The translations under genes and the position numbers were made by a program. From an uncultured Blautia sp. (GTDB lineage: Bacteria > Bacillota > Clostridia > Lachnospirales > Lachnospiraceae): 64,000 bases of DNA. Location of the stretch: assembly GCA_900539145.1 (NCBI GenBank), contig UQAX01000009.1, positions 8,035 through 72,034 of the forward strand. The letters are read 5' to 3'. Under the pieces are notes generated by a model that was not told where the DNA came from, searched no databases, and saw nothing but the letters and a program-made list of their open reading frames with translations. This document shows, piece by piece, positions 5,508-63,920 of the stretch (position 1 is the stretch's first letter; every line of letters starts with the position of its first letter).

Positions 5508-6650
5508 ATGAGTGATGAATTAAAAGATTTTACAGTGACACCTACCCTTACCTTTGAGCCTTTGCAGGAACAGGCTCCTGTGGCAGAGGTGAAGAAAGAA
5601 GAACCGGCAAAGCCTGAGATGGACGACAGTATTTTATCTGAGGAAGAAAGAAAAATCGTAGATGATTTTGCACGTCAGATTGACATTCGAAATTCAGCGG
5701 CAATTTTGCAGTACGGAGCAGGAACACAGAAGAAAATGGCTGATTTTTCAGAGGATGCTCTTGAAAAGGTGCGCACAAAGGATTTAGGCGAAGTAGGGGA
5801 TTTGCTGGAAAATGTGGTGACAGAATTAAAGAATTTCGATGCGGAAGAAGAACGCAAAGGAATTATGGGCTTTTTCAAAAAGGGTGCAAATAAACTGGAA
5901 GCCATGAAGAACAAATATTCCAAAGCAGAAGCAAATGTAAATAAAATTGTGGAAACTTTGGAAAAACATCAGATACAGCTGATGAAGGATGCGGCAATTA
6001 TGGATAAAATGTACGCATTAAATTTAAACTATTTTAAAGAGCTGTCTATGTATATTTTGGCCGGAAAGAAGAAATTGGAAGAAATCCGTTCCACAGAGCT
6101 GCCTCAGCTTATGGCAAAAGCACAGGCAAGCGGTCTTCCGGAGGATGCGCAGGCTGCAAAGGATTTGGACTCTCTGTGCGAACGTTTTGAAAAGAAAATT
6201 CATGATTTGGAGCTGACACGTATGATTGCCGTACAGACAGCGCCGCAAATCCGTCTGGTACAGGGAAATGATACGTTAATGGCAGAAAAAATCCAGTCTA
6301 CCATTGTCAATACCATTCCTCTTTGGAAAAGTCAGATGGTAATTGCTCTTGGCGTGGCACATTCCACAGAGGCCGCAAAGGCGCAGAGAGAAGTAACAGA
6401 TATGACAAATGCTCTTTTACAGAAGAATGCTCAGACTTTAAAAATGGCTACCATAGAAGCTGCAAAAGAGTCTGAAAGAGGAATTGTAGATATTGAAACA
6501 TTACAGAAAACAAACGAGTCCTTAATCAGCACCTTTGATGAAGTTATGAATATTCAGCGGGAAGGCAGAGAAAAGAGACGTGCAGCAGAGGCAGAAATAT
6601 ATCGTCTGGAAGGTGAATTGAAACAGAAACTTTTACAGATTAATCATTAA
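5508..6650 (+). CDS. telA: toxic anion resistance protein TelA family (YaaN-like)
   Basis: 380 aa helical protein with the TelA signature layout (…NLNYFKELSMYILAGKKKLEEI…LTRMIAVQTAPQIRLVQ…). It lies 3 nt downstream of the xpaC-like gene. Confidence 0.75.
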   Translation: MSDELKDFTVTPTLTFEPLQEQAPVAEVKKEEPAKPEMDDSILSEEERKIVDDFARQIDIRNSAAILQYGAGTQKKMADFSEDALEKVRTKDLGEVGDLLENVVTELKNFDAEEERKGIMGFFKKGANKLEAMKNKYSKAEANVNKIVETLEKHQIQLMKDAAIMDKMYALNLNYFKELSMYILAGKKKLEEIRSTELPQLMAKAQASGLPEDAQAAKDLDSLCERFEKKIHDLELTRMIAVQTAPQIRLVQGNDTLMAEKIQSTIVNTIPLWKSQMVIALGVAHSTEAAKAQREVTDMTNALLQKNAQTLKMATIEAAKESERGIVDIETLQKTNESLISTFDEVMNIQREGREKRRAAEAEIYRLEGELKQKLLQINH

Positions 6651-7735: not shown

Positions 7736-10700
7736 ATGGAGAAAGAATTTCTGGATGTGTTTCGAAATCTGGAAGTAGGTGAGGAGCTTCGTGCGCTTTT
7801 AAAGGAAGTGGCGGTTACGAAGATTGCCGTTAATCCGCAGAAGGACCGTATCCGAATTTATATCCGCAGCCGCCAATGGATACATAAAAAGTATATTTAT
7901 ACCTTGGAAAGAGCAGTTTCGCAGCAGTGCTTTCCGGGGGTGAGCATGGAGGTAAAGGTGCTGGAAAGGTTTACCCTTTCCAGTCAGTATACCCCTCAGT
8001 TATTCTTTGAGGCGTACCAATCGTCCATGGCTCTGGAGCTTAAAAATTACAGCATTCTGGTCTTTAATATGTTCCGGAATGCTGTAATTACGTTTCCGCA
8101 GACAGATACCATGCACATACTTTTACAATCCACAGTGTTGGCGAAAAGCAAGGAAGATGAATTGGTACAGTATATAGAAAAAATCTTTTGTGAAAGATGT
8201 GAGTTTTCTTTAAAAGTAGAGACAGAATATGAGGAAATAAAGGAAAGTAAATTCCGCAAAAACAGCGATATCCGTATTGCGCAGGAAGCGGCTCATATTG
8301 TAGAAATGTCTTCTCTCGGAAAAGAAAAAGAGGAACTTGAGGAGATAAAAGAAGAACCGAAGAAAGCTCCTGTAAAACAAAAGGAAAAAGAAAAGGCAAA
8401 AACGGAGAAGAAAGAAGCGCCTGCAAAACGTGGATTTTCTGACTTTAAACGCAGTGTAAAACGTTCTGACAATCCTGATGTACTGTATGGAAGGGACTTT
8501 GATGACGAAGTAATTCCATTGGAAAACGTGCAGACAGAAATGGGAGAGGTCTGTGTCAGAGGAAAGATTATGTCTTTGGAAAAGAGAGAAATCCGAAACG
8601 AAAAAACGATTATTATCTTTTCGATTACCGATTTTACAGACTCCATTACCGTAAAAATGTTTGCCAGAAACGACCAGGTAGAGGAGATTACAGAGGGCGT
8701 TAAGGAAAAAGCATTTGTAAAGTTGAAAGGAATTACCACCATTGACCGATACGACAGTGAGCTTACCATAGGCTCTGTGGTGGGAATTAAGAAGATTGCC
8801 AGCTTTGAAAACAGTCGTTCCGATAATTATCCGGAGAAGCGTGTGGAGCTTCACTGCCATACAAAAATGAGTGATATGGACGGAGTATCCGATGCAAAAG
8901 CTTTGATTAAACGTGCTTATGAGTGGGGGCATAAAGCTATCGCCATTACCGACCACGGGGTTGTGCAGGCATTTCCTGAGGCGAACCATTGCTTTGACTC
9001 ATGGGGAGGCGTCGTTCCTCCAGAGGCGGATTTCAAGGTGATTTATGGTGTGGAAGCTTACCTTGTAGATGATTTAAAAGGAATTGTGCAAAACAGCAAA
9101 GGGCAGAGCTTACATGCGCCTTATGTTGTATTTGATATAGAAACCACAGGATTTTCCGCTTTAAAAGATAAGATTATTGAAATCGGTGCGGTGAAGGTGG
9201 AAAACGGAAGAATTACAGAGCGCTTTTCAGAATTTGTAAATCCTCAAATTCCTATACCTTTTCGCATTGAGGAGCTGACCAGTATCAACGACAATATGGT
9301 AGCAGATGCGCCTACCATTGATGTTATTTTGCCTAAATTTGAAAAATTCTGTGAGGGCTGTGTTATGGTAGCACATAATGCAGAGTTTGATATGAGCTTT
9401 ATCCGGAAGAATTATGAGGATTTAGGTATTGAAAGAGAAGATACGGTAGTGGATACTGTGGGTATGGCAAGATTTCTCCTGCCCCAGCTTAACCGCTTTA
9501 AGCTGGATACGGTAGCAAAGGCAGTGGGAGTTTCCTTAGAGCATCACCACAGAGCAGTAGATGATGCTTCCTGTACAGCTGATATTTTTGTAAAGTTTAT
9601 TCAGATGTGTGAGGAAAGAGATATTTTTAATCTGGACGAATTAAATGAAAAGGGAACAGTTTCTGTTCATTCCATACAGAAAATGCCCACCTATCATGCC
9701 ATTATTCTGGCAAAAAATGATGTGGGAAGGGTAAATCTGTATCATTTGATTTCAGACTCCCATTTGATTTATTACCATAGACGTCCCCGTATTCCAAAGA
9801 GCCTGTTTTTGAAATATCAGGAGGGACTTCTTATCGGCTCTGCCTGCGAAGCAGGAGAGATTTATCAGGCTGTTTTGAATGGAAGACCGGAGCAGGAAAT
9901 TGCCCGTCTGGTGAATTTCTATGATTATCTGGAAATCCAGCCTCTGGGCAACAACGCCTTCATGTTAAAGAATGAAGACCGCTCGGATATTACTTCATGG
10001 GAAGATTTGCAGGAAATCAATAAGAAGATTGTAAAGCTGGGCGAGGCATTTAACAAACCCGTAGTTGGTACTTGTGATGTGCATTTTCTGGATCCGGAAG
10101 ATGAGGTGTATCGAAGGATTATTATGGCGGGAAAAGGTTTTGATGATGCAGATGATCAAGCTCCTTTATACCTTCGTACAACAGAGGAAATGTTAAAGGA
10201 ATTTTCTTATTTGGGAAGGGAAAAAGCAGAAGAAATCGTGATTACCAACCCCAATAAAATCGCAGATATGGTAGAGAAAATATCGCCTATTCACAAGGGA
10301 AAATGTCCTCCTGTTATTGAAAATTCCGATGCTATGTTAAGGGAAATCTGTTACAGTAAAGCCCATGAAATCTACGGAGAAAACCTGCCGGAAATGGTAG
10401 AAGCACGCTTGGAAAGAGAGCTGAATTCCATTATTTCCAATGGGTATGCCGTTATGTATATGATTGCCCAGAAGCTGGTTTGGAAAAGTAACAGTGACGG
10501 ATATTTGGTAGGTTCCCGTGGTTCTGTTGGTTCTTCCTTTGCAGCCACCATGTCGGGAATTACAGAGGTAAATCCTCTAAGTCCGCATTACTATTGTGCA
10601 AAATGTCACTACGCAGATTTCGACTCAGAGGAGGTGCGGGCATATTCGGGAAGGGCAGGGTGCGATATGCCGGATAAGAAATGTCCCGTATGCGGAGAGC

Positions 10701-12199
10701 CTCTGGTCAAAGAAGGATTTGACATTCCTTTTGAAACCTTCCTTGGGTTTAAAGGGGATAAAGAGCCTGATATTGACTTGAACTTTTCCGGTGATTATCA
10801 GGGAAAGGCGCACCGCTATGTAGAGGTTATTTTCGGTGCAGGACAGACGTTTAAGGCGGGAACCATCGGTACTCTGGCAGAGAAAACAGCTTTTGGCTAT
10901 GTAAAGAACTATTATGAAGAACGTGGTCAGAGAAAGCGTTATTGCGAAATCAACAGAATTGTGCAGGGCTGTACAGGGGTAAGACGTACCACAGGACAGC
11001 ATCCGGGAGGAATTATTGTACTTCCTATCGGTTGGGATATTGAGGAATTTACGCCGGTTCAGCACCCGGCAAATGATATGAACAGCGATATTATTACTAC
11101 GCATTTTGATTATCACTCCATTGACTCCAACCTTTTGAAACTGGATATTCTGGGGCACGATGATCCTACCATGATTCGTATGCTGGAAGACCTTACCGGT
11201 ATCAACGCCAGAGAAATTCCGTTGGACTCAAAAGAGGTTATGTCCTTATTTAAAAATACAGATGCACTGGGAATTACACCGGATGATATTCGAGGCTGTC
11301 CTTTGGGCTGTCTTGGCATTCCGGAGTTTGGTACAGATTTTGCCATGCAGATGTTAATTGATGCCAATCCCACTTCTTTTTCTGACTTGGTTCGTATTTC
11401 CGGTCTGTCTCACGGAACAGACGTGTGGCTGGGAAACGCACAGGATTTGATTAAGTCCGGAACGGCGACCATTACCACCTGTATCTGTACACGAGACGAT
11501 ATTATGATTTATCTGATTAACAAAGGCTTGGAACACGGACAGGCATTTACCATTATGGAGAGCGTGCGAAAGGGTAAGGGATTAAAGCCGGAATGGATTG
11601 AAGAAATGAAAAAACATGATGTTCCGGACTGGTATATTGAGTCCTGTAAAAAGATTAAATACATGTTCCCGAAAGCCCATGCGGCAGCGTATGTTATGAT
11701 GGGCTGGCGAATTGCTTACTGCAAAATTTTTCATCCGCTGGCATATTATGCAGCTTATTTCAGTATTCGTGCAACGGCGTTTTCTTATGAGCTTATGTGT
11801 CAGGGAAAAGAAAAGCTGGAATATTTTATGGACGATTATGAGAAGCGAAAGGATACATTGAGCAAAAAAGAGCAGGATACTTACAAAGATATGCGAATTG
11901 TGCAGGAGATGTATGCCAGAGGCTTTGACTTTGTTCCCATTGATATTTATAAGGCAAATGCACATACATTCCAGATTATAGACGGAAAGCTGATGCCTGC
12001 GTTGGATACCATAGAAGGTCTGGGAGACAGGGCGGCCGATGCCGTGGTGGCGGCGGCAGAGGAAGGAAATTTCCTGTCACTGGACGATTTCAGAAATCGA
12101 ACAAAGGTTACATCCTCTACCATTGATTTGATGAATGATTTGGGATTGTTTGGGAAATTGCCTAAGTCTAATCAGATGTCGTTGTTTGATTATCAATAA
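7736..12199 (+). CDS. polC: DNA polymerase III PolC-type (Gram-positive replicative polymerase with PHP and proofreading exonuclease domains)
   Basis: 1487 aa. It has the exonuclease motifs (YVVFDIETTGF, HNAEFDMSF), the PHP domain (ITDHGVVQAFPE) and a zinc finger (YYCAKCHYADF…CPVCGEPL). The ispG-polC synteny is typical of Firmicutes. Confidence 0.95.
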   Translation: MEKEFLDVFRNLEVGEELRALLKEVAVTKIAVNPQKDRIRIYIRSRQWIHKKYIYTLERAVSQQCFPGVSMEVKVLERFTLSSQYTPQLFFEAYQSSMALELKNYSILVFNMFRNAVITFPQTDTMHILLQSTVLAKSKEDELVQYIEKIFCERCEFSLKVETEYEEIKESKFRKNSDIRIAQEAAHIVEMSSLGKEKEELEEIKEEPKKAPVKQKEKEKAKTEKKEAPAKRGFSDFKRSVKRSDNPDVLYGRDFDDEVIPLENVQTEMGEVCVRGKIMSLEKREIRNEKTIIIFSITDFTDSITVKMFARNDQVEEITEGVKEKAFVKLKGITTIDRYDSELTIGSVVGIKKIASFENSRSDNYPEKRVELHCHTKMSDMDGVSDAKALIKRAYEWGHKAIAITDHGVVQAFPEANHCFDSWGGVVPPEADFKVIYGVEAYLVDDLKGIVQNSKGQSLHAPYVVFDIETTGFSALKDKIIEIGAVKVENGRITERFSEFVNPQIPIPFRIEELTSINDNMVADAPTIDVILPKFEKFCEGCVMVAHNAEFDMSFIRKNYEDLGIEREDTVVDTVGMARFLLPQLNRFKLDTVAKAVGVSLEHHHRAVDDASCTADIFVKFIQMCEERDIFNLDELNEKGTVSVHSIQKMPTYHAIILAKNDVGRVNLYHLISDSHLIYYHRRPRIPKSLFLKYQEGLLIGSACEAGEIYQAVLNGRPEQEIARLVNFYDYLEIQPLGNNAFMLKNEDRSDITSWEDLQEINKKIVKLGEAFNKPVVGTCDVHFLDPEDEVYRRIIMAGKGFDDADDQAPLYLRTTEEMLKEFSYLGREKAEEIVITNPNKIADMVEKISPIHKGKCPPVIENSDAMLREICYSKAHEIYGENLPEMVEARLERELNSIISNGYAVMYMIAQKLVWKSNSDGYLVGSRGSVGSSFAATMSGITEVNPLSPHYYCAKCHYADFDSEEVRAYSGRAGCDMPDKKCPVCGEPLVKEGFDIPFETFLGFKGDKEPDIDLNFSGDYQGKAHRYVEVIFGAGQTFKAGTIGTLAEKTAFGYVKNYYEERGQRKRYCEINRIVQGCTGVRRTTGQHPGGIIVLPIGWDIEEFTPVQHPANDMNSDIITTHFDYHSIDSNLLKLDILGHDDPTMIRMLEDLTGINAREIPLDSKEVMSLFKNTDALGITPDDIRGCPLGCLGIPEFGTDFAMQMLIDANPTSFSDLVRISGLSHGTDVWLGNAQDLIKSGTATITTCICTRDDIMIYLINKGLEHGQAFTIMESVRKGKGLKPEWIEEMKKHDVPDWYIESCKKIKYMFPKAHAAAYVMMGWRIAYCKIFHPLAYYAAYFSIRATAFSYELMCQGKEKLEYFMDDYEKRKDTLSKKEQDTYKDMRIVQEMYARGFDFVPIDIYKANAHTFQIIDGKLMPALDTIEGLGDRAADAVVAAAEEGNFLSLDDFRNRTKVTSSTIDLMNDLGLFGKLPKSNQMSLFDYQ

Positions 12200-12207
12200 G
12201 TAAAATA

Positions 12208-12369
12208 CAGCATTCCACTGATAAATGCGGATATTTTCTTGTTTTTCTGCGCCGCTTATGGATAGTTTGTACGCCAAACTCGTGCTTACGCACTCAAACA
12301 CGGCTTCCAAACTATCACTATGCTCGAAAAACTGCGAAAATATTCCGATTATTTCTCAGTGGAATGCTG
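12208..12369. repeat. about 160-bp imperfect palindromic element, probably a rho-independent terminator of polC and a divergent member of the intergenic repeat family
   Basis: It has an outer 14-bp inverted repeat (cagcattccactga … tcagtggaatgctg) with inner symmetry (gcggatattttc…gaaaatattccg) and a T-rich run after it. It shares TGCTCGAAAAA and ttttNtgcgc segments with the elements at 13875 and 52746. Confidence 0.5.
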
Positions 12370-12508
12370 TTTTGTATTTAATTAAAAAGGCTGTTACATT
12401 GGCAATATTAGGAGTTTTTCTCCTGTTTTTGATGTAGCAACTTATTTTTAAATACGAAAATATAATAATAATTTGAAATAAAGAAAACTACTCTATTAAC
12501 CAAAACCA

Positions 12509-12558
12509 GAATATGGATACATTTTATTAGATTTGTCAGATAAAATGTATCCATATTC
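12509..12558 (-). terminator. terminator hairpin of the MFS transporter gene (perfect 19-bp stem)
   Basis: gaatatggatacattttat [12-nt loop] ataaaatgtatccatattc is a perfect inverted repeat sitting just past the MFS stop codon on the minus strand. Confidence 0.6.
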
Positions 12559-12574
12559 TCGCTATAAGCAAATA

Positions 12575-13828
12575 TTACATTGTTTTTTCATAAAGACTGA
12601 AATAAACATTCTTGTCCAGTCTTAAATAAATACTATATAAAATCATCAAAAATAAACCGATTACCGCTATAATTATCCATACAGTACGGAACGGATAATA
12701 GTCGATCAGTGTTCCTATTACATAGTTACTTAAAACTCCGATTAATCCGGCGAAGCTGTTGGTAATACTTAATACTCTGCCACGATGTGTGTCCGGTATT
12801 CTCTTTGTAAGGTAAGGTGTTTTTGATATAGAGCCGAATATTTCGCCTATGGTAAAGAGTATCATCCCCACAATCGCAATGATAAAATAATGATTTAAAA
12901 AGATAAAAAAGGCAAGTCCCAATGACTCTAATAGCTGTCCAAAATACATAATTCGGATATCGATTACTCCGGAAAGCTTTTGGGTGAATATCGGCGTGCC
13001 TATTACCACAACAACGGCATTGATGCTTGTTAAAATTCCAAATTTAAAAGCTCCTGAACCACGAAAGACTTCCTCCAGATGTAAAGGCATCAAAAAGCTA
13101 AATTGATTATAAATCAGCGCAGCTATACCGGAAATAACAAATAGCAGAAAAAATAATTTTCGTTCAGAAAAAACCTTGAATATTGAGCCGGTTTCACCTT
13201 TCTCATATTCGTTCATTGTTTTAGTATCCTGATTATTAGCTTTTACATTCTTAATAAAAACCAATAGCAGCAACGTACTGCTTATATCTGCCAGACCGTT
13301 AATGAAAAAAGACAGGCTGAGATAATTATTAAATAAAATGCCGCCGATAGTCGGAGCTAAAACCAGTCCTAAATTCATCGAAAGATAATTCAGGGAATAG
13401 GCTCTTTCTCTATCCTTGTAGGTTGTCAAGTCAGCAATCAGGGCATCATAAGCCGGCTGTTCCATTGCCTGAAATAAAGAAGCAATCGCTAATAAATACA
13501 GTGTTGTCATGGACATTGGCAATACAGCGCAAACGAAATAGAGGCTGTTTCCGATTAAGTCAAAGGTAACGATGATATGCTTTTTATTATATTTGTCAGC
13601 CATCTTACCTCCCAGCAAGTAAAACGGTCCCATAAACATAGAAAACATCATCATATACAGACCAATCGTCTGTCCGTTCAGTCCCAGTTTTTCACTCATT
13701 ATCAAGGTAAGCATGGGCCATATTAAAGCCCCCATACTTGTCATGATTTTACCAAAAGCCAACACATAGATTTCTCTTGGCAAATGGCTGTACATTGAGA
13801 AATGTTTTTTTAGAAATCCCATAGGCAT
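12575..13828 (-). CDS. MFS transporter
   Basis: 417 aa with about 12 predicted transmembrane helices and typical MFS loop motifs (GKMADKYNKK, interhelical R/K). The precise start is uncertain between 13828 and 13822. Confidence 0.7.
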   Translation of the reverse strand: MPMGFLKKHFSMYSHLPREIYVLAFGKIMTSMGALIWPMLTLIMSEKLGLNGQTIGLYMMMFSMFMGPFYLLGGKMADKYNKKHIIVTFDLIGNSLYFVCAVLPMSMTTLYLLAIASLFQAMEQPAYDALIADLTTYKDRERAYSLNYLSMNLGLVLAPTIGGILFNNYLSLSFFINGLADISSTLLLLVFIKNVKANNQDTKTMNEYEKGETGSIFKVFSERKLFFLLFVISGIAALIYNQFSFLMPLHLEEVFRGSGAFKFGILTSINAVVVVIGTPIFTQKLSGVIDIRIMYFGQLLESLGLAFFIFLNHYFIIAIVGMILFTIGEIFGSISKTPYLTKRIPDTHRGRVLSITNSFAGLIGVLSNYVIGTLIDYYPFRTVWIIIAVIGLFLMILYSIYLRLDKNVYFSLYEKTM

Positions 13829-13874
13829 TATTTCCTTTACGTTCTGACAATATTTGCAAGTATCCTATAAAAAA

Positions 13875-14020
13875 GAGTTGTCGCATTAAGTGCATCTCAA
13901 GAATATCTATACATTTTGCGCTCAGTCTGCGCTTGCTTTGAGCTTGTAATCTCAAAGCGTGCTCGAAAAATTCGCCAAAAGTGTATAAATATTTCTCCAA
14001 AATACTTAATGTGACAACTC
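13875..14020. repeat. nested palindromic intergenic repeat: an outer stem GAGTTGTCGCATTAAGT/ACTTAATGTGACAACTC enclosing a roughly 100-bp inverted-repeat-bounded insert; it also acts as the purC terminator on the minus strand
   Basis: The outer 17-bp inverted repeat is at 13875-13891 and 14004-14020. The inner element is bounded by ATCTATACATTTT … AAAGTGTATAAAT inverted repeats and has the core GCGCTCAGTCTGCGCTTGCTTTGAGCTTGTAATCTCAAAGCGTGCTCGAAAAATTCGCC. That core is about 90% identical, in reverse orientation, to the element at 52769-52864. A T-run follows the hairpin on the minus strand. Confidence 0.7.
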
Positions 14021-14033
14021 CGATTATAAAAAA

Positions 14034-14903
14034 TTAGAATTTCTCTCCTGAGAGTAATTCGTAAGCTTCTACATATTTTTCAACTGTTTTGTTGATTACT
14101 TCTTCCGGCAGAAGGAAGTCGCTTTCCGGATTAGCTTTCAGCCAGTCACGAACGTACTGTTTGTCAAAGGATGGCTGTCCCTGTCCAGGTTTGTAGCCTT
14201 CTAACGGCCAAAATCTGGAGCTGTCCGGTGTAAGCATTTCATCACCCAGAACCACGTCTCCGTTTTCATCTAAACCAAATTCAAATTTTGTATCTGCAAT
14301 AATAATGTTTTTTGTAAGTGCGTATTCTGCACATTTTTTATACAGTGCGATTGTGTAATCACGGATTTTTTCTGCGTATTCCTGTCCACGTCCCGGATAT
14401 AATTTCTCTAAAGTTTCAACAGTATCTTCAAAGGAAACATGTTCATCGTGGTCGCCGATTTCCGCTTTTGTAGTTGGTGTGTAAATCGGTTCAGGCAGTT
14501 TATCGGACTCCTGTAATCCCTCCGGAAGCTTAATGCCGCATACAGTACCGTTTTTCTGGTAGCTTTCCCAGCCGCTTCCTGTAATATATCCACGCACGAT
14601 GCACTCAACAGGGAGCATTTCCAGTTTTTGGCAAAGCATGGTATGTCCTTCGAATTCCGGCTGCTGGAAGAACTCCGGCATATCCTTTACATTTGTAGAA
14701 ATCATGTGGTTTGGAACAATATCCTTTGTAAAATCAAACCAGAATTTTGACATCTTTGTAAGGACAACACCTTTATTTGTAACTGTGTTTTTGAGAATGT
14801 AGTCAAATGCGGAAATTCTGTCTGTTGCATAAATAACTAATTCCTCTCCAATGTCATAAACCTGACGTACTTTTCCTTCTTTAAATGGTTTGTACTCCTG
14901 CAT
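14034..14903 (-). CDS. purC: phosphoribosylaminoimidazole-succinocarboxamide synthase (SAICAR synthetase)
   Basis: 289 aa long-form PurC (…VYDIGEELVIYATDRISAFD…LIADTKFEFG…). AAAGGTGA ribosome-binding site. Confidence 0.9.
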   Translation of the reverse strand: MQEYKPFKEGKVRQVYDIGEELVIYATDRISAFDYILKNTVTNKGVVLTKMSKFWFDFTKDIVPNHMISTNVKDMPEFFQQPEFEGHTMLCQKLEMLPVECIVRGYITGSGWESYQKNGTVCGIKLPEGLQESDKLPEPIYTPTTKAEIGDHDEHVSFEDTVETLEKLYPGRGQEYAEKIRDYTIALYKKCAEYALTKNIIIADTKFEFGLDENGDVVLGDEMLTPDSSRFWPLEGYKPGQGQPSFDKQYVRDWLKANPESDFLLPEEVINKTVEKYVEAYELLSGEKF

Positions 14904-15006
14904 GTGTTTTCACCTTTCCTCTTATATAATTATAGTTTGAAACGCTTTTATTGTAACAAATTTTTGGAAAAAAGAAATAGTATTTCCAAAAAAAGTATAA
15001 AATCTT

Positions 15007-16110
15007 TTAAACTTCGCCAAGAACTTCAGAAAGAGCTTGCAAAAGTTCATTGTTTTTTTCGGGACTCATCATACAGAAACGGATGAAGGAATTGTCCAGA
15101 AACGGGAAAGTGGAGCAGTCACGTATCATAAGTCCTCTGCGGATGCAGTAATCAAAAACCTGCTCGGAGGTAACGTCTTCCTTTAAAATTTTTACCAGAA
15201 GGAAGTTGGAGCAGGAAGGATATACCTTTACACCTTTCCATGAGGATAAGATTTTGAAAAGTCGTTCCCTTTCTCCGGAAATCAAAGCTCTTGTTTTGTC
15301 AATGTACTCTTTATCAGAAAACATGATACAGCCGGCAATCTCTGCCAAACTGTTGATGGTCCACGGATTTTTCTTTGTGTTGATATATTTTAAAAGGTCC
15401 GGATTTCCTGTTACCGCATAGCCCAGACGCAGACCGGGAGCTGCAAAAAATTTAGAAATTCCCCGCAGGACAATGAGATTATTATAATTGTTGGTAAGAG
15501 GAATGGAAGAAATTTTACTGTCCAAAGGGGCAAATTCCTCGTAAGTTTCATCTACCATAACACAAGTTCCGTATTGCATACAGGTGTCTAAGATTTTTCG
15601 CATATCCTTTCTGGTAATAGCGGTGGAGGTAGGATTATTAGGGTTACAAAGTACCAGTAAATCAATGCTGTCGTTTAAGTGTGAACAAAAATCAGAAATA
15701 TTGATTTGGAAATTATCTTCTTCCAGCAGAGGATAGTAAAGCGTTTGTCCGCCTTTTAATGCAATTTCACGCTCGTATTCCGAATAAGTAGGGCCTAAAA
15801 TCAAAGCTTTTTTGGGATTTGTGGTCTGAATAAACAGAGAAATCAGTTCCGTAGAGCCGTTTCCTACAATAATATTTTCAAACTGAGCCCCCGTATAATC
15901 ACAGATGCTTTTGCGAAGCTTTGTGTAGTCACGGTCAGGGTAATTGGTAATGGCATCAATGTGAGTAGAGAGGGTGTCTCTTAACAAAGGAGAGATGCCA
16001 AGGGGATTTACATTGGCGGAAAAACTGGTGATATCCTCTTTTTTTATATGATAGATTTCTTCGATTTTTTCTAAATCGCTTCCGTGGAAGTGGTCTTTAT
16101 GTTTCAGCAT
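15007..16110 (-). CDS. pyridoxal-phosphate-dependent aminotransferase, HisC/CobD family (histidinol-phosphate aminotransferase or threonine-phosphate decarboxylase-like)
   Basis: 367 aa class I/II aminotransferase fold with the PLP lysine context (…LRGISKFFAAPGLRLGY…). AAGGGAGG ribosome-binding site. The exact substrate cannot be told from sequence. Confidence 0.7.
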   Translation of the reverse strand: MLKHKDHFHGSDLEKIEEIYHIKKEDITSFSANVNPLGISPLLRDTLSTHIDAITNYPDRDYTKLRKSICDYTGAQFENIIVGNGSTELISLFIQTTNPKKALILGPTYSEYEREIALKGGQTLYYPLLEEDNFQINISDFCSHLNDSIDLLVLCNPNNPTSTAITRKDMRKILDTCMQYGTCVMVDETYEEFAPLDSKISSIPLTNNYNNLIVLRGISKFFAAPGLRLGYAVTGNPDLLKYINTKKNPWTINSLAEIAGCIMFSDKEYIDKTRALISGERERLFKILSSWKGVKVYPSCSNFLLVKILKEDVTSEQVFDYCIRRGLMIRDCSTFPFLDNSFIRFCMMSPEKNNELLQALSEVLGEV

Positions 16111-29787: not shown

Positions 29788-30045
29788 GAGAACACGTTGA
29801 CGAGACGAGTAAAATGTGAAAGGTCACAGAGAGGAGTGTGTATGCTGAAAGCACTCTGTCACGGAAGCATTTGAAAACTACCTCTGAGTGGCCCTAATCC
29901 GGTCCGGTAATTCCGTTATCATTAAATGAAGTGGTTAGTAAAGCATTCGCTTTTAACAAAAAGGGTGGAACCGCGGATAATTGTGAGAATAATCCGTCCC
30001 TTGCAGTCAGAAACAGGCAGCAGGGGACGGAGTTTTTTTATATTT
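29788..30045 (+). promoter_or_regulatory. T-box riboswitch leader (tRNA-Thr responsive) of thrS
   Basis: The conserved T-box sequence AAAAAGGGTGGAACCGCGG is at about 29955-29976. A stem I region contains GAAAACUACC (Thr codon ACU/ACC). The terminator hairpin ccgtcccttgcagtc…gcagcaggggacgg is followed by TTTTTTT at 30031-30037. Confidence 0.8.
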
Positions 30046-42519: not shown

Positions 42520-44184
42520 ATGAATAAAACATGGTGGAAAAATAGTGTAATTTATCAAATTTATCCAAGGAGTTTTGCAGATAGCAATGGAGACGGAATT
42601 GGAGATATTAAGGGAATTACTCAACATCTCGATTATTTAAAGGAACTGGGCGTAGATGTCATTTGGCTGTCTCCTGTTTATCAGTCTCCTAATGATGATA
42701 ATGGATATGATATTTCCGATTATCAGGCAATTATGGAAGATTTTGGAACAATGGAAGATTTTGATGAAATGCTTTCAGAGATGCATAAAAGAGGAATAAA
42801 GCTGGTTATGGATTTGGTAGTGAACCATACTTCTGATGAACACCCATGGTTTGTAGAAAGCAGAAAGTCAAAGGATAATCCTTATCGTGATTACTACATC
42901 TGGAAAGAAGGAAAAAACGGGAAAGAGCCAAATAACTGGGGAGCATGTTTTGGCGGTTCTGCATGGGAATATGATAAGGAAACAGAAATGTACTATTTAC
43001 ATTGCTTTTCTAAGAAACAGCCTGATTTAAACTGGGAAAATGAAAAAGTCAGAAAAGAAGTTTTTGATATGATGACATGGTGGTGTGAGAAAGGTGTAGA
43101 TGGATTTCGTATGGACGTTATCAGCATGATTTCTAAAGATCCTGCCTATCCTGACGGAGTTTCTCATAATGGCTTATATGGTGATTTTGGCCCTTTTGTC
43201 TGCAATGGTCCTCATGTCCATGAGTATTTAAAGGAAATGAACCAAAAAGTGCTTTCCAAGTATGATTTGATTACGGTTGGTGAAGCGTCTGGCGTTACTG
43301 TAGAAGAAGCAAAAAAATATGCTAATTTAGACGGAACTGAGCTAAACATGGTATTCCAGTTTGAACATACAGACATTACATCTGGAAAGAATGGAAAATG
43401 GACAGACGAGAGATTTAAACTCAGAGATTTGAGAAAAATATTGAATAAATGGCAGACAGAGTTGGAGGGAAAAGCATGGAACAGTCTTTATTGGGATAAC
43501 CACGACCAGCCAAGAGCTGTGTCTCGCTTTGGAAATGACGGACCAATGTATCGTGAACTTTCAGCTAAAATGCTGGCAACCTGTCTTCATTTGATGAAAG
43601 GAACACCTTATATTTATCAGGGTGAAGAAATTGGTATGACAAATGCTTATTTTAATAAACTGGAAGATTACCGTGACATCGAAAGTATTCATGCTTTTGA
43701 AGAGATGACAGAAAATGGTCTTCTTACAGAGGAAGAAATGATGAGCGCTTTAAAGGCAGTCAGCCGTGATAATGCCAGAACTCCTATGCAGTGGGACGAT
43801 AGTGAAAATGCAGGATTTACCACAGGCACCCCATGGATTAAAGTAAATCCTAATTATTTACAGATTAATGCAAAGGCGGCTTTGGAAGATAAAGACAGCG
43901 TGTTCTATTATTATCAGAAATTAATACAGATGCGTAAGGAATATGAAATTATTGTGGACGGTATTTTTGAAGGTCTTCTGGAAGACGATGAAAATATTTA
44001 CGCATACCGGAGAAAACTGGGAAATCAGACTTTAATTGTAGCTTGTAATTTCAGCGATAAAAAAGTACCGTGTACTTTGTTTGAGGGAGCAGCAGGCGGT
44101 AAAGAAATGATTGCCAATTACAAAAATCATGAGACAGGAATATTGAAACCTTACGAAGCAAGAGTTGTACTGATAGAAAATTAA
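42520..44184 (+). CDS. GH13 oligo-1,6-glucosidase / alpha-glucosidase
   Basis: 554 aa with the GH13 conserved regions (DLVVNHTSDEHPWF, GFRMDVI, EASG…, YWDNHDQPR). Confidence 0.85.
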   Translation: MNKTWWKNSVIYQIYPRSFADSNGDGIGDIKGITQHLDYLKELGVDVIWLSPVYQSPNDDNGYDISDYQAIMEDFGTMEDFDEMLSEMHKRGIKLVMDLVVNHTSDEHPWFVESRKSKDNPYRDYYIWKEGKNGKEPNNWGACFGGSAWEYDKETEMYYLHCFSKKQPDLNWENEKVRKEVFDMMTWWCEKGVDGFRMDVISMISKDPAYPDGVSHNGLYGDFGPFVCNGPHVHEYLKEMNQKVLSKYDLITVGEASGVTVEEAKKYANLDGTELNMVFQFEHTDITSGKNGKWTDERFKLRDLRKILNKWQTELEGKAWNSLYWDNHDQPRAVSRFGNDGPMYRELSAKMLATCLHLMKGTPYIYQGEEIGMTNAYFNKLEDYRDIESIHAFEEMTENGLLTEEEMMSALKAVSRDNARTPMQWDDSENAGFTTGTPWIKVNPNYLQINAKAALEDKDSVFYYYQKLIQMRKEYEIIVDGIFEGLLEDDENIYAYRRKLGNQTLIVACNFSDKKVPCTLFEGAAGGKEMIANYKNHETGILKPYEARVVLIEN

Positions 44185-44210: not shown

Positions 44211-44266
44211 AGGTTGTCGCATTAAATATTTTGGAATAATGTTTAAAGCGACAGCCTTGTTGTTTT
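44211..44266 (+). terminator. terminator hairpin of the TGTCGCATTAA family (no insert)
   Basis: ggttgtcgc ATTAAATATTTTGGAATAATGTTTAAA gcgacagcc followed by ttgttgtttttt. It shares the TGTCGCATTAA stem start with the sites at 13875 and 48820. Confidence 0.65.
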
Positions 44267-44377
44267 TTGGGGGATTTTATTTTCGCTCTTTACTGCCAAA
44301 CTAACATTTTTGCAACATTAGCCATTAGGGCTGTGCAAACGGAAGAGAAAAGTGTAAGATAAAACCGGGTGATGAAC

Positions 44378-46844: not shown

Positions 46845-48757
46845 AGCTCTTATCTCTGTCCTTTTCCAACTTTAAACGCAGTGTCAGGGAGTACGGAATG
46901 TTAATTCTTTCCCTTACTTTTTCAATTTTTGTATTTTTTAATTTCCAAAGTGTTATTTATTCTGACTCTATGGATGTTCTGGAAAATTATAATAAAGAGT
47001 ATATTGACATTATTGTTCAGGCTGCATCCGTAGTATTCGGTGTATTTTTATTTTTCTTTATCTGGTATGCTTCCAATGTCTTTCTGAACCAAAGGAAAAA
47101 GGAAATCGGAATTTACATTTTTATGGGGCTGGATAATGTAAGAATAGGAAAAATGTATATGCTGGAGTCGGTATTTATCGGGTTGTTCTCACTGCTTGCA
47201 GGGATTGGAACAGGCGTCTTGTTTTCCAAGCTGTTTCAAATGCTTCTTTTAAAGCTGTCTGACATCAGCGTAGACATTAAGTTCTCTTTTTCATGGGAAG
47301 CGATACTGATTACAGCAGGAATGTTTCTTGTTATTTATGGTCTGATGACCTTAAAAAGCTACCATACTTTAAAGACCAGCAGTGTCTTAAATTTGCTTTC
47401 CGGTGCAAAACAGCAGGAAATGCAGAAAGAAAAGTGGATCATTACATTTCTGAAAATTGCAGGTGGTGTGGGTATTCTGCTTTTTGGATATTATTTGGCG
47501 TGGGATACAGGAGATCTCAATTCTTTAGGAAATGCTTTAGGGGCTGTTGTTCTGGTAATTGTAGGGGTTTACCTTTTGTTTTCCGGTCTTATTCCTGCCA
47601 TACTTCGCAAGCTTTCCGGAAACAAATATTATTTGTATAAGAAAGAGCGTACTTTATGGGTAAATAATCTGGCGTTTCGTATGAAAAAAAATTATAGAAC
47701 GTATGCAATGGTAACGGTGCTGATGATTTGCTCTGTGACTGTCATGGCAATTTCCATAGCAATGAAACAGCGCTATGAAAAGCTTACACATTTTGACCAG
47801 ACTTATACTTATCAGGTATTAAGCAGTGAAGAAAAAAACGGAGAAGAAATTGCCAAGGGAATTGAGCAGGAGAATAAGGTGAAATTCTGGAATGAAATGC
47901 AGGTGGCTATGGTAGAGCCTTCTGTGGTTCACAGCAAATATACTTATACAGCTTATGGATTGGTAGCTTTTTCAGATGTGAAACAAGCGGCGAAGAAAGC
48001 GGGACTTCCTTTTGCTTATAAAGAGCTGAAGGACAATCAGGCAATCGAGCTTTCTCATGAAGTCCTGATGGATATATCAGGTGGTGCGATTGAAAACTAC
48101 GAGCAAAAAATCGGAAGTGAAACGTATGACGTGATAAAAGCAGATAATACGCCTTATTTCGGAGCACTGCAAAACGATACGAAGATTTTTATTCTCAGTG
48201 ATAAAACCTTTGAAAGCCTGAAAAATTTAGGAAGCATTACATATTTTTACAATTATAGAATTGAGAATATGAAAAATATGGAGGCGTCCAAATCATATCT
48301 GAATACACTGGCACAAAGCAGTGAGGACGGACAGGCATTTACAGGCGTAAATTATACACAGATAGACGGAAGGCAGGACAGTTGGATAAGAGTCATGTAT
48401 TCCCTTTGCATCTTTATGTTTGTAACCCTTGTACTGGCAGCAGGAAGTATTATCTTTTTGAAAATCGGCAATGAGGTATATGAGGATAAAGAACGATACA
48501 AAATTTTAGAGAAAATGGGAATTCAAAAGAAAAGCCTGAGAAAATCTGTACGAAATGAAATTTGTTTTACTTACTATTGCCCTTTTGTTCTTATGATGAT
48601 TACCTCCTATTTTTCTGTAAAAGCGCTGGGAAATGTTATGAGAGAGGATTTGCTCATGGTGAACATCTGGAGTATGGGAATTATTCTTTTGGTATTTACA
48701 GTGATTTGTGCAATATCTGTTTATACGGCAAAGAAAAAGTTGTCCTTACTTTCATAA
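46841..48757 (+). CDS. ABC transporter permease, FtsX family, 10-TM with large extracellular domain (BceB-like)
   Basis: 638 aa. ATGA overlap with the ATPase gene. The transmembrane topology and extracellular loop are typical of BceB-type permeases. Confidence 0.8.
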   Translation: MKLLSLSFSNFKRSVREYGMLILSLTFSIFVFFNFQSVIYSDSMDVLENYNKEYIDIIVQAASVVFGVFLFFFIWYASNVFLNQRKKEIGIYIFMGLDNVRIGKMYMLESVFIGLFSLLAGIGTGVLFSKLFQMLLLKLSDISVDIKFSFSWEAILITAGMFLVIYGLMTLKSYHTLKTSSVLNLLSGAKQQEMQKEKWIITFLKIAGGVGILLFGYYLAWDTGDLNSLGNALGAVVLVIVGVYLLFSGLIPAILRKLSGNKYYLYKKERTLWVNNLAFRMKKNYRTYAMVTVLMICSVTVMAISIAMKQRYEKLTHFDQTYTYQVLSSEEKNGEEIAKGIEQENKVKFWNEMQVAMVEPSVVHSKYTYTAYGLVAFSDVKQAAKKAGLPFAYKELKDNQAIELSHEVLMDISGGAIENYEQKIGSETYDVIKADNTPYFGALQNDTKIFILSDKTFESLKNLGSITYFYNYRIENMKNMEASKSYLNTLAQSSEDGQAFTGVNYTQIDGRQDSWIRVMYSLCIFMFVTLVLAAGSIIFLKIGNEVYEDKERYKILEKMGIQKKSLRKSVRNEICFTYYCPFVLMMITSYFSVKALGNVMREDLLMVNIWSMGIILLVFTVICAISVYTAKKKLSLLS

Positions 48758-48819: not shown

Positions 48820-48880
48820 GAGGGCTGTCGCATTAAGTGCATAATTCAAATGCTGTTTAATACGACAGCCTCTTTTTCTG
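48820..48880 (+). terminator. terminator hairpin of the TGTCGCATTAAGTGCAT family (no insert)
   Basis: gagggctgtcg CATTAAGTGCATAATTCAAATGCTGTTTAATA cgacagcctc followed by tttttctg. The loop begins with the same CATTAAGTGCAT as the stem arm of the 13875 element. Confidence 0.7.
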
Positions 48881-52745: not shown

Positions 52746-52890
52746 AAGCTATCGCATTATGTGATAATCAAAAAATCTATACATTTTTAGCGAATTTGTC
52801 GAGCACGCTTTGAGATTATAAGCTCAAAGTGAGCGCAGACTGAGCATAAAATGTATAGATTTTCTTGATATAAGTTTAAAACGATAGCTT
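52746..52890. repeat. nested palindromic intergenic repeat (reverse-orientation copy of the 13875 element); it also serves as the terminator of the cydC-like gene
   Basis: The outer stem is aagctatcg…cgatagctt. The inner element at 52769-52864 is bounded by AAAATCTATACATTTT / AAAATGTATAGATTTT inverted repeats. Its core, when reverse-complemented, reads ATGCTCAGTCTGCGCTCACTTTGAGCTTATAATCTCAAAGCGTGCTCGACAAATTCGCT, nearly identical to 13915-13975. A T-run follows. Confidence 0.7.
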
Positions 52891-52917
52891 CTTTTCTCGA
52901 TAAACAAAATTTAATTT

Positions 52918-53514
52918 TTACAAGGTCTTATAAACATCCGCCAGCATATTAACCAGAAAATCCTGAGAAAATCGGCTTGTGTCAACGCATAGCTGGTAAT
53001 TATCCAGATTATTCCATTTCTGGTCGGTGAAAAATTCGTAGTAAGATTTACGGGTTTTATCCATCTTTTTCACAAGGGCACGGGCGCTTTTTTCTTCTCT
53101 GCCCAAGCGTTCCATAACTGCTTTGACACGATACTCATAAGGGGCATATACGAAAAGACTCAGGCAATCATCGCCCAGTATATAATTGGCACAGCGTCCT
53201 ACAATGATACAGTCTTCTGTTTTGCCAAGGCGTTCAATAATTTTGGACTCTGTTTCAAAAAGAACATCATTCATAGGATGAAAATGATACTGTGGCTGCA
53301 TCTGCATTTGCTCGTTGATGGGAAGTCTCCACTGATTGGCTTTCTTTTCGTCTACTTTCAGCAGTTCCTCGTAAGGAATATCGTTTTCCTTGCTGGCAAG
53401 GCGGATAAGCTCATGGTCATAGAAGTGTATTCCCAGCTTGTTTGCCAGTGCTTTTCCTAAAAGACGTCCGCCGCTTCCATACATACGATTGATAGTAATA
53501 ATACGATGACTCAT
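52918..53514 (-). CDS. cytidylate kinase-like family protein (P-loop)
   Basis: About 198 aa with a P-loop (MYGSGGRLLGK). I chose the ATG preceded by AGGAGGG at 7 nt over the upstream GTG. Confidence 0.65.
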   Translation of the reverse strand: MSHRIITINRMYGSGGRLLGKALANKLGIHFYDHELIRLASKENDIPYEELLKVDEKKANQWRLPINEQMQMQPQYHFHPMNDVLFETESKIIERLGKTEDCIIVGRCANYILGDDCLSLFVYAPYEYRVKAVMERLGREEKSARALVKKMDKTRKSYYEFFTDQKWNNLDNYQLCVDTSRFSQDFLVNMLADVYKTL

Positions 53515-55310: not shown

Positions 55311-55349
55311 GAAAAAAACACAACTGACGAAAGTCAGGAACGATATTAT

Positions 55350-55582
55350 GATAGAGGTGCAGGTTTCAAGAGTACCCTTTTGCAAGGCAGGGCAGCCGCA
55401 GGAGGGGAAAGGGGAAGCTGCCGAAGTGGGAAAATCTGCCCGAGATTTTCCTGCTGGGACATGGTATAAGATATCATGTACTGTCACGACAAGTGGAGCG
55501 CTATCATCATTGGTCATACTCAATAGATTTCGGTAAAACCATGAATGCGTTCCCAGCAGGGAGTATCGTTCATGGTTTTTTT
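55350..55582 (+). promoter_or_regulatory. lysine riboswitch (L-box) with intrinsic terminator
   Basis: Conserved L-box segments are present: GAGGTGC…AGAGTACC, CTGCCGAAGTGGGAAA and ACTGTCACGACAAGTGGAGCGCTATC. The terminator aaccatgaa…ttcatggtt + TTTTTTT is at 55536-55582. The regulated gene is an NhaC-family transporter. Confidence 0.7.
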
Positions 55583-63462: not shown

Positions 63463-63495
63463 AGCAAGGCAGTCAGCGATAAGCTGACAGGAAAC

Positions 63496-63568
63496 GGGAT
63501 CTTAGCTCAGCTGGGAGAGCATCTGCCTTACAAGCAGAGGGTCACAGGTTCGAGCCCTGTAGGTCCCA
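63496..63568 (+). tRNA. tRNA-Val (anticodon TAC)
   Basis: Cloverleaf checked by hand. Acceptor GGGATCT/AGGTCCC, anticodon stem TCTGC/GCAGA, loop CTTACAA, T-arm ACAGG-TTCGAGC-CCTGT. No encoded CCA. Confidence 0.85.
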
Positions 63569-63600
63569 TTTCTTTTGTAAAAGCAAAGAAAAAAGTAAAT

Positions 63601-63674
63601 GGCGAGATAGCTCAGTTGGCTAGAGCATACGGTTCATACCCGTAGTGTCGAGGGTTCGAATCCCCCTCTCGCTA
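63601..63674 (+). tRNA. tRNA-Met (anticodon CAT; elongator-like)
   Basis: Acceptor GGCGAGA/TCTCGCT with a G1·U72 wobble, anticodon stem TACGG/CCGTA, loop TTCATAC. I recall a similar B. subtilis elongator tRNA-Met. One A·C mismatch in the T-stem. Confidence 0.75.
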
Positions 63675-63699
63675 CTTGTCGAAAGACAAAACATAAAAT

Positions 63700-63772
63700 G
63701 GGATCTTAGCTCAGCTGGGAGAGCATCTGCCTTACAAGCAGAGGGTCACAGGTTCGAGCCCTGTAGGTCCCA
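63700..63772 (+). tRNA. tRNA-Val (anticodon TAC), second identical copy
   Basis: Identical to 63496-63568, and the 32-nt spacer that follows is also identical. Confidence 0.85.
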
Positions 63773-63804
63773 TTTCTTTTGTAAAAGCAAAGAAAAAAGT
63801 AAAT

Positions 63805-63878
63805 GGCGAGATAGCTCAGTTGGCTAGAGCATACGGTTCATACCCGTAGTGTCGAGGGTTCGAATCCCCCTCTCGCTA
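63805..63878 (+). tRNA. tRNA-Met (anticodon CAT), second identical copy
   Basis: Identical to 63601-63674. Confidence 0.75.
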
Positions 63879-63920
63879 CTAAAAGAATAGTTTGTGGGAA
63901 ATAGGCTGTGACTCAGAAAG

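Follow-up and report, generated by a model that had tools for sequence, protein, structure and literature searches.

Small palindromic repeats located between genes are well known in Proteobacteria and in some pathogens, and to our knowledge they have hardly been described in the dominant Firmicutes of the gut. Correia elements of Neisseria (CREE/NEMIS) and the ERIC/IRU sequences of enterobacteria are imperfect palindromes of 100-150 bp, which are dispersed between genes, close to where genes end, and are co-transcribed into long hairpins. Both can function as terminators or as sites of processing, and internal-deletion variants are known as well. The terminal repeats of Correia elements are conserved over 26 bp and come with a TA duplication, and we know of no dedicated transposase for either the Correia or the ERIC sequences. 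Among Firmicutes, RUP, BOX and SPRITE of Streptococcus pneumoniae, bcr1 of the Bacillus cereus group and EFAR of Enterococcus are small structured intergenic repeats, often placed near stop codons or terminators, and mobilisation in trans is presumed for them. The ends of RUP are IS630-like and accompanied by a TA duplication, BOX has a modular build, and bcr1 generates a TTTAT duplication. We know of no report that any of these repeats combines an invariant core with covarying arms.

There are also systems in which the recognised substrate is a folded single strand. For example, the PATEs of the IS200/IS605 family are non-autonomous and move as one folded strand without target duplication, and in their recognition a hairpin and a few specific bases outweigh the terminal sequence. 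PATEs carry two different subterminal hairpins, one at the left end and one at the right, and are inserted 3' of a fixed target of 4-5 nt. Similarly, the attC sites of integrons are imperfect palindromes of 55-140 bp that are read as a folded single strand, the strand being set by asymmetric unpaired bases, and their pairing is kept while the sequence varies. attC sites have conserved R''/R' ends (RYYYAAC/GTTRRRY) and no conserved interior, and they occur as cassette arrays beside intI. Furthermore, REP, BIME and REPIN sequences, together with the IS200-like Y1 protein RAYT, represent extragenic palindromes at the 3' ends of genes in which single-stranded DNA hairpins are recognised with a strand-specific asymmetry and without target duplication (PMC3733652, PMC3116915). 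REP loops are in turn insertion sites for other elements such as IS1397 and ISKpn1 (PMC3733652, PMC3116915). With a length of 20-40 bp and a GTAG or CGTC tag, REPs are present in hundreds of copies and are found mostly in Proteobacteria (PMC3733652).

The region at 13875-14020 of the window (the whole stretch of 64,000 nucleotides analysed here, from an uncultured Blautia sp.) is one copy of a lineage-specific palindromic repeat family of about 100 bp in Blautia and related Lachnospiraceae. The repeated unit is called E100 below. E100 forms a dispersed family with a defined hairpin structure, a distinctive conservation pattern, an asymmetry between its strands and a visible course of decay.

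Two nested copies in the window

Copy A extends over 13875-14020 on the minus strand, as delimited from the sequence, the open reading frames and the fold. The first-pass annotation had described this region as a nested palindrome with a 17-bp outer repeat, a second repeat layer and an internal palindrome, and all three are present in the sequence. The outer 17-bp inverted repeat pairs GAGTTGTCGCATTAAGT (13875-13891) with ACTTAATGTGACAACTC (14004-14020) and has one G·T/A·C position. The second layer pairs ATCTATACATTTT imperfectly with AAAGTGTATAAAT, and the central palindrome, CTTTGAG-8 nt-CTCAAAG, is located at 13937-13957. Enclosed by the outer stem is the repeated unit E100 itself (13894-13995, minus strand), with arms of about 20 bp and a core, which is detected by the covariance model with 110.5 bits (E = 8e-24) and by nhmmer with 93.6 bits. 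Its asymmetric conserved core (13918-13976, minus strand), defined by alignments and a pattern count, has the order GGCGAATTTTTCGAGCACG, then the CTTTGAG/CTCAAAG hairpin, then CAAGCGCAGACTGAGCGC. The folding of copy A that had been proposed as a check gives, for the single strand, one long hairpin of -59.4 kcal/mol (z = -9.6), and none of 200 shuffles was as stable. On the minus strand, copy A starts 14 nt past the purC stop codon (14034), its outer stem is directly followed by a T-run (13869-13874, TTTTTT on the minus strand), and the start of an MFS gene (13828) lies downstream. The window's PurC and that of Candidatus Blautia merdavium share 91% identity.

A second copy in reverse orientation had been placed at 52769-52864. 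It is present, and its extent is wider: the full nested structure of copy B covers 52750-52890 on the plus strand, as judged from sequence, alignment and fold, and has a diverged outer stem of its own, AGCTATCGCATTATGT ... AAAACGATAGCT. The E100 unit of copy B occupies 52770-52871 on the plus strand (covariance model 120.7 bits, E = 3e-26), with its core at 52790-52845. Copy B opens 14 nt past the stop codon of an ABC-transporter gene (52736), and a cytidylate-kinase-like gene converges on it, with its stop at 52918. The two copies lie in opposite orientation, with the core on the minus strand in A and on the plus strand in B, and 13870-13994 pairs with 52771-52895 over 125 nt at 82% complementarity. 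A 29-nt stretch of the core is found exactly twice in the window, where no occurrence is expected. Identity between A and B is highest in the core, at about 95%, and drops outwards to about 90% for the arms and about 60% for the outer stem.

Family size and distribution

Scanning one genome per species with two core motifs gave 26 loci, comprising 23 real copies and three chance matches in high-GC genomes. The 23 copies, situated at unrelated housekeeping loci, come from about 15 genomes of Blautia and other Lachnospiraceae from the gut of humans, chickens, mice and deer, and each genome has two to five of them under the strict pattern. One more copy, in Blautia sp. Marseille-P3201T, came from an HMM search. 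In metagenomes, the left-end 18-mer matched at least 119 loci, at least about 47 of which are real low-GC gut copies, the others being chance matches in high-GC coding DNA. Every copy from the genomes and metagenomes is intergenic, and the window itself holds two full copies and one remnant according to the covariance model. The suspected repeat family is therefore a dispersed one and not the outcome of local duplication, given 23 copies at unrelated loci and at least about 47 in gut metagenomes.

BLAST searches of plasmids and phages with copy A gave no match, and a scan of viral contigs produced one chance match only, in a high-GC contig. No Rfam family matched at the gathering threshold anywhere in the window, and a search of 12100-14100 with E up to 10 returned only generic miRNA-like hairpins. 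Literature searches by sequence words and by topic yielded no account of the E100 family, which is apparently undescribed.

Anatomy and conservation of E100

The anatomy of E100 was taken from alignments of 23-39 copies, some of which are related and so not fully independent. The unit of about 100 bp consists of variable complementary arms of about 20 bp, a nearly invariant asymmetric core and a small central hairpin that covaries. The arm consensus is CCAGGAATATTTATACATTTT / AAAATGTATAAATATTCTGG. From 5' to 3', the core consensus is nnGCGAATTTGTCGAGCACG, CTTTGAG-loop-CTCAAAG (a 7-bp stem with its loop) and nnAGCGCAGACTGAGC, or in summary form GCGAATTTGTCGAGCACG ... AGCGCAGACTGAGC. Both the folds of A and B and the covariation describe a single continuous hairpin with one apical stem-loop.

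Conservation is unevenly spread over this hairpin. The arms have a mean pairwise identity of 0.72-0.78, compared with 0.97 for the central stem and 0.93-0.99 for the core motifs, the invariance of the core being partly forced by the search patterns. For motifs not forced by the search pattern the values are 0.845 on the left (including two variable leading bases, genome set) and 0.93 on the right (metagenome set). Standard pairs fill 97.9% of the cells in an alignment that includes related copies, and slid controls reach only 21-48%. Compensatory changes are found in 13 of 30 pairs and, among the arm pairs, in 11 of 15; none of 500 shuffles reached the observed values. The central hairpin covaries as GTTTGAG/CTCAAAC, as CTCTGAG/CTCAGAG and through a change of TT..AA to CC..GG. 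Orthologous copies in different species (L017/L024 and L022/L029 among the fetched loci) have identical cores in surroundings that are 84-91% identical, and their arm changes fall in compensated pairs. A host function, or gene conversion among copies, could likewise account for the conservation of these orthologous cores.

Most copies sit in a homologous outer hairpin, GGAGYTGTCRCnTTAAR ... YTTAAnGYGACARCTCC, with A and T runs flanking it. The shared outer hairpin is missing at the L015/L034 locus, in L100, in L033:1896-1983 and in the GC-rich L017 and L022 types, and a remnant at 12508 described below also has no shared outer stem. Because these copies exist, E100 is separable from the outer stem. 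Pairing runs seamlessly from E100 into the flanks, so that the palindrome is extended on both sides. Among the approximately 50 copies inspected, neither a target-site duplication nor a conserved flanking target is visible, and a fixed insertion target is not readable because the boundaries of E100 cannot be placed.

Strand asymmetry, orientation and gene context

On the core strand, which reads GCGAATTTG..., the non-Watson-Crick pairs comprise 23 independent G·T events versus six A·C events, or about 16 versus two once two badly aligned copies are dropped. Neutral transitions should yield G·T and A·C equally. In 29 of 35 copies, moreover, the core strand gives a better fold than its complement under RNA as well as DNA parameters, which is partly owed to the shared core. 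With G·T as the predominant imperfect pair on the core strand, this strand appears to be selected to fold.

The polarity of E100 is not tied to transcription or replication. At loci with tandem flanking genes the core is co-oriented with the genes at three and anti-oriented at five, and core orientation shows no preference with respect to the gene strand that prevails locally. The T-run at L031 serves the strand opposite the core. Moreover, L032 and L033 have opposite core orientations at one shared locus between divergent bipA and ssb-like genes, which is not a terminator position because the flanking genes are divergent.

Within the window, copies A and B and two further hairpins (44212-44256 and 48820-48872) all lie 14-65 nt past a stop codon and are followed by a T-rich run, and all four have the layout of an intrinsic terminator, with a stem-loop and a T-run just past the stop codon. 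The statement in the first-pass annotation that every copy sits 3' of a gene and ends in a T-run is thus accurate for the window and does not extend to the family, given the L032/L033 copies between divergent genes. A consensus terminator scanner misses A and B because their "loop" is longer than 100 nt. Judged by layout, the outer stem and T-run are a plausible predicted transcription terminator. Promoter-like matches inside E100 or at its edge were not above those in shuffles and were not conserved among copies.

Hairpins without an insert and the decay of E100

The outer-stem word TGTCGCATTAA, with at most one mismatch, has six occurrences in the window, which are both arms of three hairpins, where 1.3 are expected. 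The 17-mer TGTCGCATTAAGTGCAT is exact at 13879 in copy A and at 48826. The same outer stem had been said to form terminators without any insert, and two such hairpins that fold well are indeed seen on the plus strand. One is at 44212-44256 (fold z = -7.3), follows a gene ending at 44184 and has its T-run at 44257-44268; the other is at 48820-48872 (fold z = -4.6), follows a gene ending at 48757 and has its T-run at 48873-48879. The covariance-model score of the hairpin at 44212-44256 is only 17.7 bits (E = 0.15). Its loop contains TGGAATAAT, which is similar to the beginning of the E100 left arm, and the loop at 48820-48872 contains TTGAATTATGCAC, which looks like the outer end of an element arm. 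Similarly, in a relative (L057) the terminator of purC has an outer stem of the related type that lacks E100, and stretches of its loop resemble the outer ends of E100 arms. The sequence of these loops at 44212, 48820 and L057 is suggestive of E100 remnants, and the two hairpins of the window do not serve as clean empty sites, since their loops keep apparent outer ends of E100 arms.

E100 copies erode by processes typical of palindromes, namely internal deletion that leaves short hairpins and template-switch conversion from arm to arm. The first process is visible at 12508-12559 (minus strand), 16 nt past an MFS stop codon, where 20-bp perfect arms, AGAATATGGATACATTTTAT, and a 12-nt loop, CTGACAAATCTA, represent a decayed E100 (covariance model 31.6 bits, E = 7e-5; fold z = -8.0). 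This loop matches the reverse complement of the left end of the core. In strains L001, L003 and L005 the same arms surround ACGCTCAG, the reverse complement of the right end of the core. When these alleles are compared, the two forms are seen to be independent internal deletions of one ancestral copy. The case of 12508-12559 means that simple hairpins can arise from the full element by internal deletion, and because this remnant has decayed to a plain hairpin, the "empty" outer-stem hairpins may be decayed, gutted copies rather than virgin targets. The second process is seen in strain L008, in which the left internal loop of copy A is overwritten by the exact reverse complement of the right loop. 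This change is a quasipalindrome correction, in other words an arm-to-arm conversion, and its junction retains a base specific to the left arm, which argues against an assembly artefact.

A separate nested palindrome, element C, is located 3' of polC at 12205-12385 (minus strand), as defined from the sequence and strain alleles, with the outer stem ACAGCATTCCACTGA. Its likeness to E100 is limited to short motifs (GGAATATTTT, TTTTTCGAGCA and GCGCAGA). Element C was set aside as a member of the family and is treated as a separate palindrome because neither the E100 HMM nor the covariance model detects it and the fetched loci contain no further copy. Strains L004 and L008 have a 117-bp shorter allele of element C. 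This allele was rejected as a virgin target: its loop still holds one arm of the inner palindrome and, for this reason, it is best read as a deletion between AGAAA repeats.

Stability within the species and the search for an enzyme

Strain contigs were looked up via PurC, the ABC-transporter protein, the cytidylate-kinase-like protein and DUF454. Within the species, the E100 copies are stable: all eight strain contigs for copy A contain it, copy B is identical in its ten, each copy keeps a single orientation, and the spacer length at the 48820 hairpin is unchanged in six. Because these contigs (eight for A, ten for B, six for the 48820 hairpin) include no insertion polymorphism of E100, the case for its mobility is drawn from dispersal only. 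PurC homologues at 88-96% identity differ in downstream synteny and have different terminators, and they therefore provide no clean orthologous empty site. As such, the proposed comparison of occupied and empty sites found no clean filled/empty pair among the strain contigs and PurC relatives.

Among the matches listed for the left-end 18-mer, every low-GC one is a complete short element, and no gene-carrying parent was found. Searching about 1 Mb of fetched loci by tblastn gave no match to an IS200/IS605-type transposase, the queries being approximate IS200 and IS608 TnpA sequences, which makes this a weak search. No RAYT-like gene was seen beside any E100 copy in the fetched loci. Two inverted E100 copies that lie 4.7 kb apart in L033, the sole locus with such a pair, were considered as a REPtron, and this candidate was rejected as the genes enclosed are adhE and bipA, with no transposase. 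A likeness of the arms to dif or Ter sites was considered and dropped because the arms are the variable part of E100.

Comparison with described repeats

E100 belongs to the known class of small palindromic intergenic repeats, and its conservation pattern is unusual. Like the Correia and ERIC sequences, it is a dispersed intergenic imperfect palindrome near gene ends with internal-deletion variants. Unlike them, it has variable covarying arms around an invariant interior and no visible duplication, its copy number is far lower (two to five per genome under the strict pattern), and there is no sequence similarity. E100 is comparable in kind to RUP, BOX, bcr1 and EFAR as a small structured Firmicutes repeat by stop codons, but its sequence and architecture are different. 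It differs from REP sequences in being about 100 bp long, low-copy and at home in Firmicutes, and in having no GTAG or CGTC tag.

With attC sites, E100 shares the imperfect palindrome, the pairing that is kept while the arm sequence varies and the asymmetry in favour of one strand, whereas it has no R''/R' ends, does not form a cassette array with intI and does possess a conserved interior. The mechanism that E100 most resembles is that of the PATEs. The ratio of G·T to A·C (23 versus 6) and the better folding of the core strand (29 of 35) suggest a PATE-like, strand-specific single-stranded fold. The architecture is nevertheless unlike that of a PATE, as E100 is one long hairpin with an asymmetric interior and has no distinct left-end and right-end hairpins.

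Interpretation and alternative explanations

We favour the explanation that E100 is a non-autonomous element which is recognised as a folded single strand, lives in terminators and is moved in trans by a putative enzyme, and we consider its chances of being correct to be about even. It is favoured because the interior is invariant and asymmetric, the arms are complementary and otherwise free, wobble pairs favour one strand, no duplication is seen and orientation is random. By analogy, this signature is close to that of known folded-single-strand substrates, among them IS200/IS605 ends, REP/RAYT and attC. We infer that E100 is mobile, that it has a single-stranded intermediate and that it may function in termination.

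Under this folded-strand explanation, E100 would be, or would recently have been, a non-autonomous mobile element with a folded single strand as its cis signal. The signal would consist of the hairpin geometry and the conserved internal-loop sequences of the core strand, and not of terminal sequences, which are the signal in classical MITEs. Movement would be effected in trans by a candidate structure-specific enzyme, for instance of the HUH/Y1 type or another hairpin-recognising recombinase. Terminators would be safe sites for E100, with erosion into ordinary hairpins afterwards, and the leftover hairpins, with outer stem and T-run, might serve, or be tolerated, as transcription terminators.

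A related explanation, which we regard as rather unlikely, departs further from known systems. E100 could be the cis substrate of a novel Lachnospiraceae machine that reads the asymmetric internal-loop signature on any long stem, or the 60-nt core could be a new functional RNA or single-stranded DNA motif, such as a ribozyme or a protein-docking module, which hitch-hikes in terminators.

The first-pass annotation had proposed a miniature inverted-repeat element inserted into a terminator hairpin. The dispersal and the nesting of most copies in a terminator-like outer hairpin with A and T runs agree with this proposal; the class assignment does not. A classical MITE would derive from an insertion sequence by internal deletion and would travel as double-stranded DNA, carried by a DDE transposase bound to its terminal repeats. 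E100 is small (about 100 bp), AT-rich, multi-copy and intergenic, with inverted arms of about 20 bp, and its variable central domain would suit an origin by internal deletion. However, its ends are not conserved in sequence, none of the approximately 50 copies has a target-site duplication, and the palindrome runs on into the flanks. Conservation is lowest in the arms, which accumulate compensatory changes around a nearly invariant interior, and this is the opposite of what is expected for ends bound by a transposase. Moreover, the G·T bias on one strand is left unexplained by a double-stranded substrate, and the matches listed for the left motif include no long version. A classical MITE is therefore an improbable identity for E100.

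To a similar degree, we doubt that E100 is a host-functional structured RNA, whether a 3'-UTR element, a small RNA or a protein-binding or stabilising module, which resides in terminators and has spread by duplication. A small structured RNA had been suggested at the outset, and the part of this suggestion that fits is that one strand appears to be selected to fold. Strong covariation, wobble tolerated on that strand only, very stable predicted folds, cores that are identical between species at orthologous loci and the orientation of all four window copies and remnants with the upstream gene would all be expected of such an RNA. The core, however, occurs in either orientation: its strand is antisense to both flanking genes at five of the eight tandem loci, and the T-run at L031 serves the opposite strand. 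Furthermore, there is no conserved promoter, promoter-like matches remaining within the range of shuffles, no Rfam family matches even at E = 10, and copies are lost or gutted without replacement.

The spread of E100 could also be explained without any transposition, although we hold this to be quite improbable. Homologous terminator hairpins would swap their inserts by homologous recombination or gene conversion, palindromes would change size by template switching, and the core would possibly be a duplex binding site for a host protein. Several observations are in keeping with such exchanges, including the outward decrease of identity between A and B (from about 95% in the core through about 90% in the arms to about 60% in the outer stem), the homology of outer stems in most copies, the L008 conversion as templated repair from arm to arm, and the lack of both a duplication and an enzyme among our findings. 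Contigs L080 and L170 even join the flanks of different copies at E100, but both have low coverage and may be assembly chimeras. In several copies, namely those of the L015/L034 locus, L100, L033:1896-1983 and the 12508 remnant, the shared outer stem is missing, and outer arms of about 20 bp with an identity of only 60-70% offer little for homologous recombination to work on. A duplex binding site would in addition leave the maintained arm pairing and the wobble bias unexplained.

In an inverton, the core would be flipped by a site-specific recombinase that uses the arms as its sites. Such a switch is brought to mind by the opposite core orientation of L032 and L033, two Blautia species, at the same intergenic site, and is very improbable, as the arms are only about 64 bp apart, very short for recombinase inversion when compared with fim-type, Hin-type and C. 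difficile switches, one orientation is found in 8/8 strain contigs for copy A and 10/10 for copy B, the core contains no promoter, and multi-copy dispersal is unexpected for a switch.

Implications for Blautia and its terminators

The combination of an invariant asymmetric interior, complementary free arms and one-strand wobble points to recognition as a folded single strand. The 60-nt core could be used as bait for finding the responsible enzyme or binding protein in Blautia. There is also a practical side to the family, as E100 breaks or chimerises metagenome assemblies of an abundant gut genus. In addition, E100 can be followed within one species from a repeat to terminator hairpins of ordinary appearance, by way of internal deletion and arm conversion, which bears on the origin and turnover of terminators. 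If E100 were the substrate of a novel machine, or its core a functional motif of its own, the decay of E100 would be a regular source of new terminator hairpins.

Length alleles and a probable conversion allele at the polC-purC locus

The spacer between the MFS gene and polC is 77-80 bp long in some strains versus 259-376 bp in others (strain loci L001, L003 and L005 compared with window 12200-12575); the MFS-polC-purC region is a hotspot for structural variation. In one MAG this spacer consists of wholly different DNA, and in a relative a DDE transposase adjoins purC (comparison loci L007 and L056).

Element C (window 12205-12385) is a second nested palindrome; it is located 3' of polC and has an outer stem of its own. 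It is full length in strain loci L002 and L006 and 117 bp shorter in L004 and L008, the length difference being bounded by the 5-nt repeat AGAAA. Because one arm of the inner palindrome is retained in the loop of the short allele, this allele more likely arose by deletion than by insertion. Additionally, the polC reading frame contains a perfect 13-bp inverted repeat, AATTACAGCATTC / GAATGCTGTAATT (window 8045-8089), which has ACAGCATTC in common with the element C outer stem.

Copy A (window 13875-14020) also varies between strains. In its allele at L008:3860-4095, a stretch of approximately 18-22 nt in the left internal loop has been replaced with a copy of the right loop in exact reverse complement, and the centre of the element thereby becomes a perfect palindrome. 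This change looks like a template-switch (quasipalindrome) conversion.

The MFS, purC and aminotransferase genes form a three-gene minus-strand block (window 12575-16110) in an otherwise plus-strand window. This block contains or adjoins copy A, element C and the E100 remnant (window 12508-12559), all with their cores on the minus strand, and the arrangement may stem from an old local inversion. Elsewhere, the window carries a T-box leader (29788-30004), a lysine riboswitch (55344-55511) and a 190-nt tandem duplication with two tRNA pairs (63487-63880).

Other elements, contig ends and contig joins at E100 loci

A 69-bp GC-rich palindromic element, distinct from E100, sits inside an E100 copy at L035:4759-4830 and is missing from the orthologous copy in another species (L066). 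A second copy occurs at L024 around position 5560 and, like the first, lies directly 3' of TTTTATT without a duplication; the pattern resembles target-specific insertion by another small element family. In several Candidatus Blautia species, an E100-like unit (~125 nt) is partially duplicated in tandem directly upstream of the full copy (L017:7120-7330; L035:4880-5060).

E100 copies also coincide with contig ends and joins. The end of contig L037 falls within copy B, and the low-coverage contigs L080 and L170 each fuse a left and a right flank that belong to two different E100 loci. At such sites E100 either disrupts assemblies, through breaks or chimeric joins, or brings about real rearrangements.
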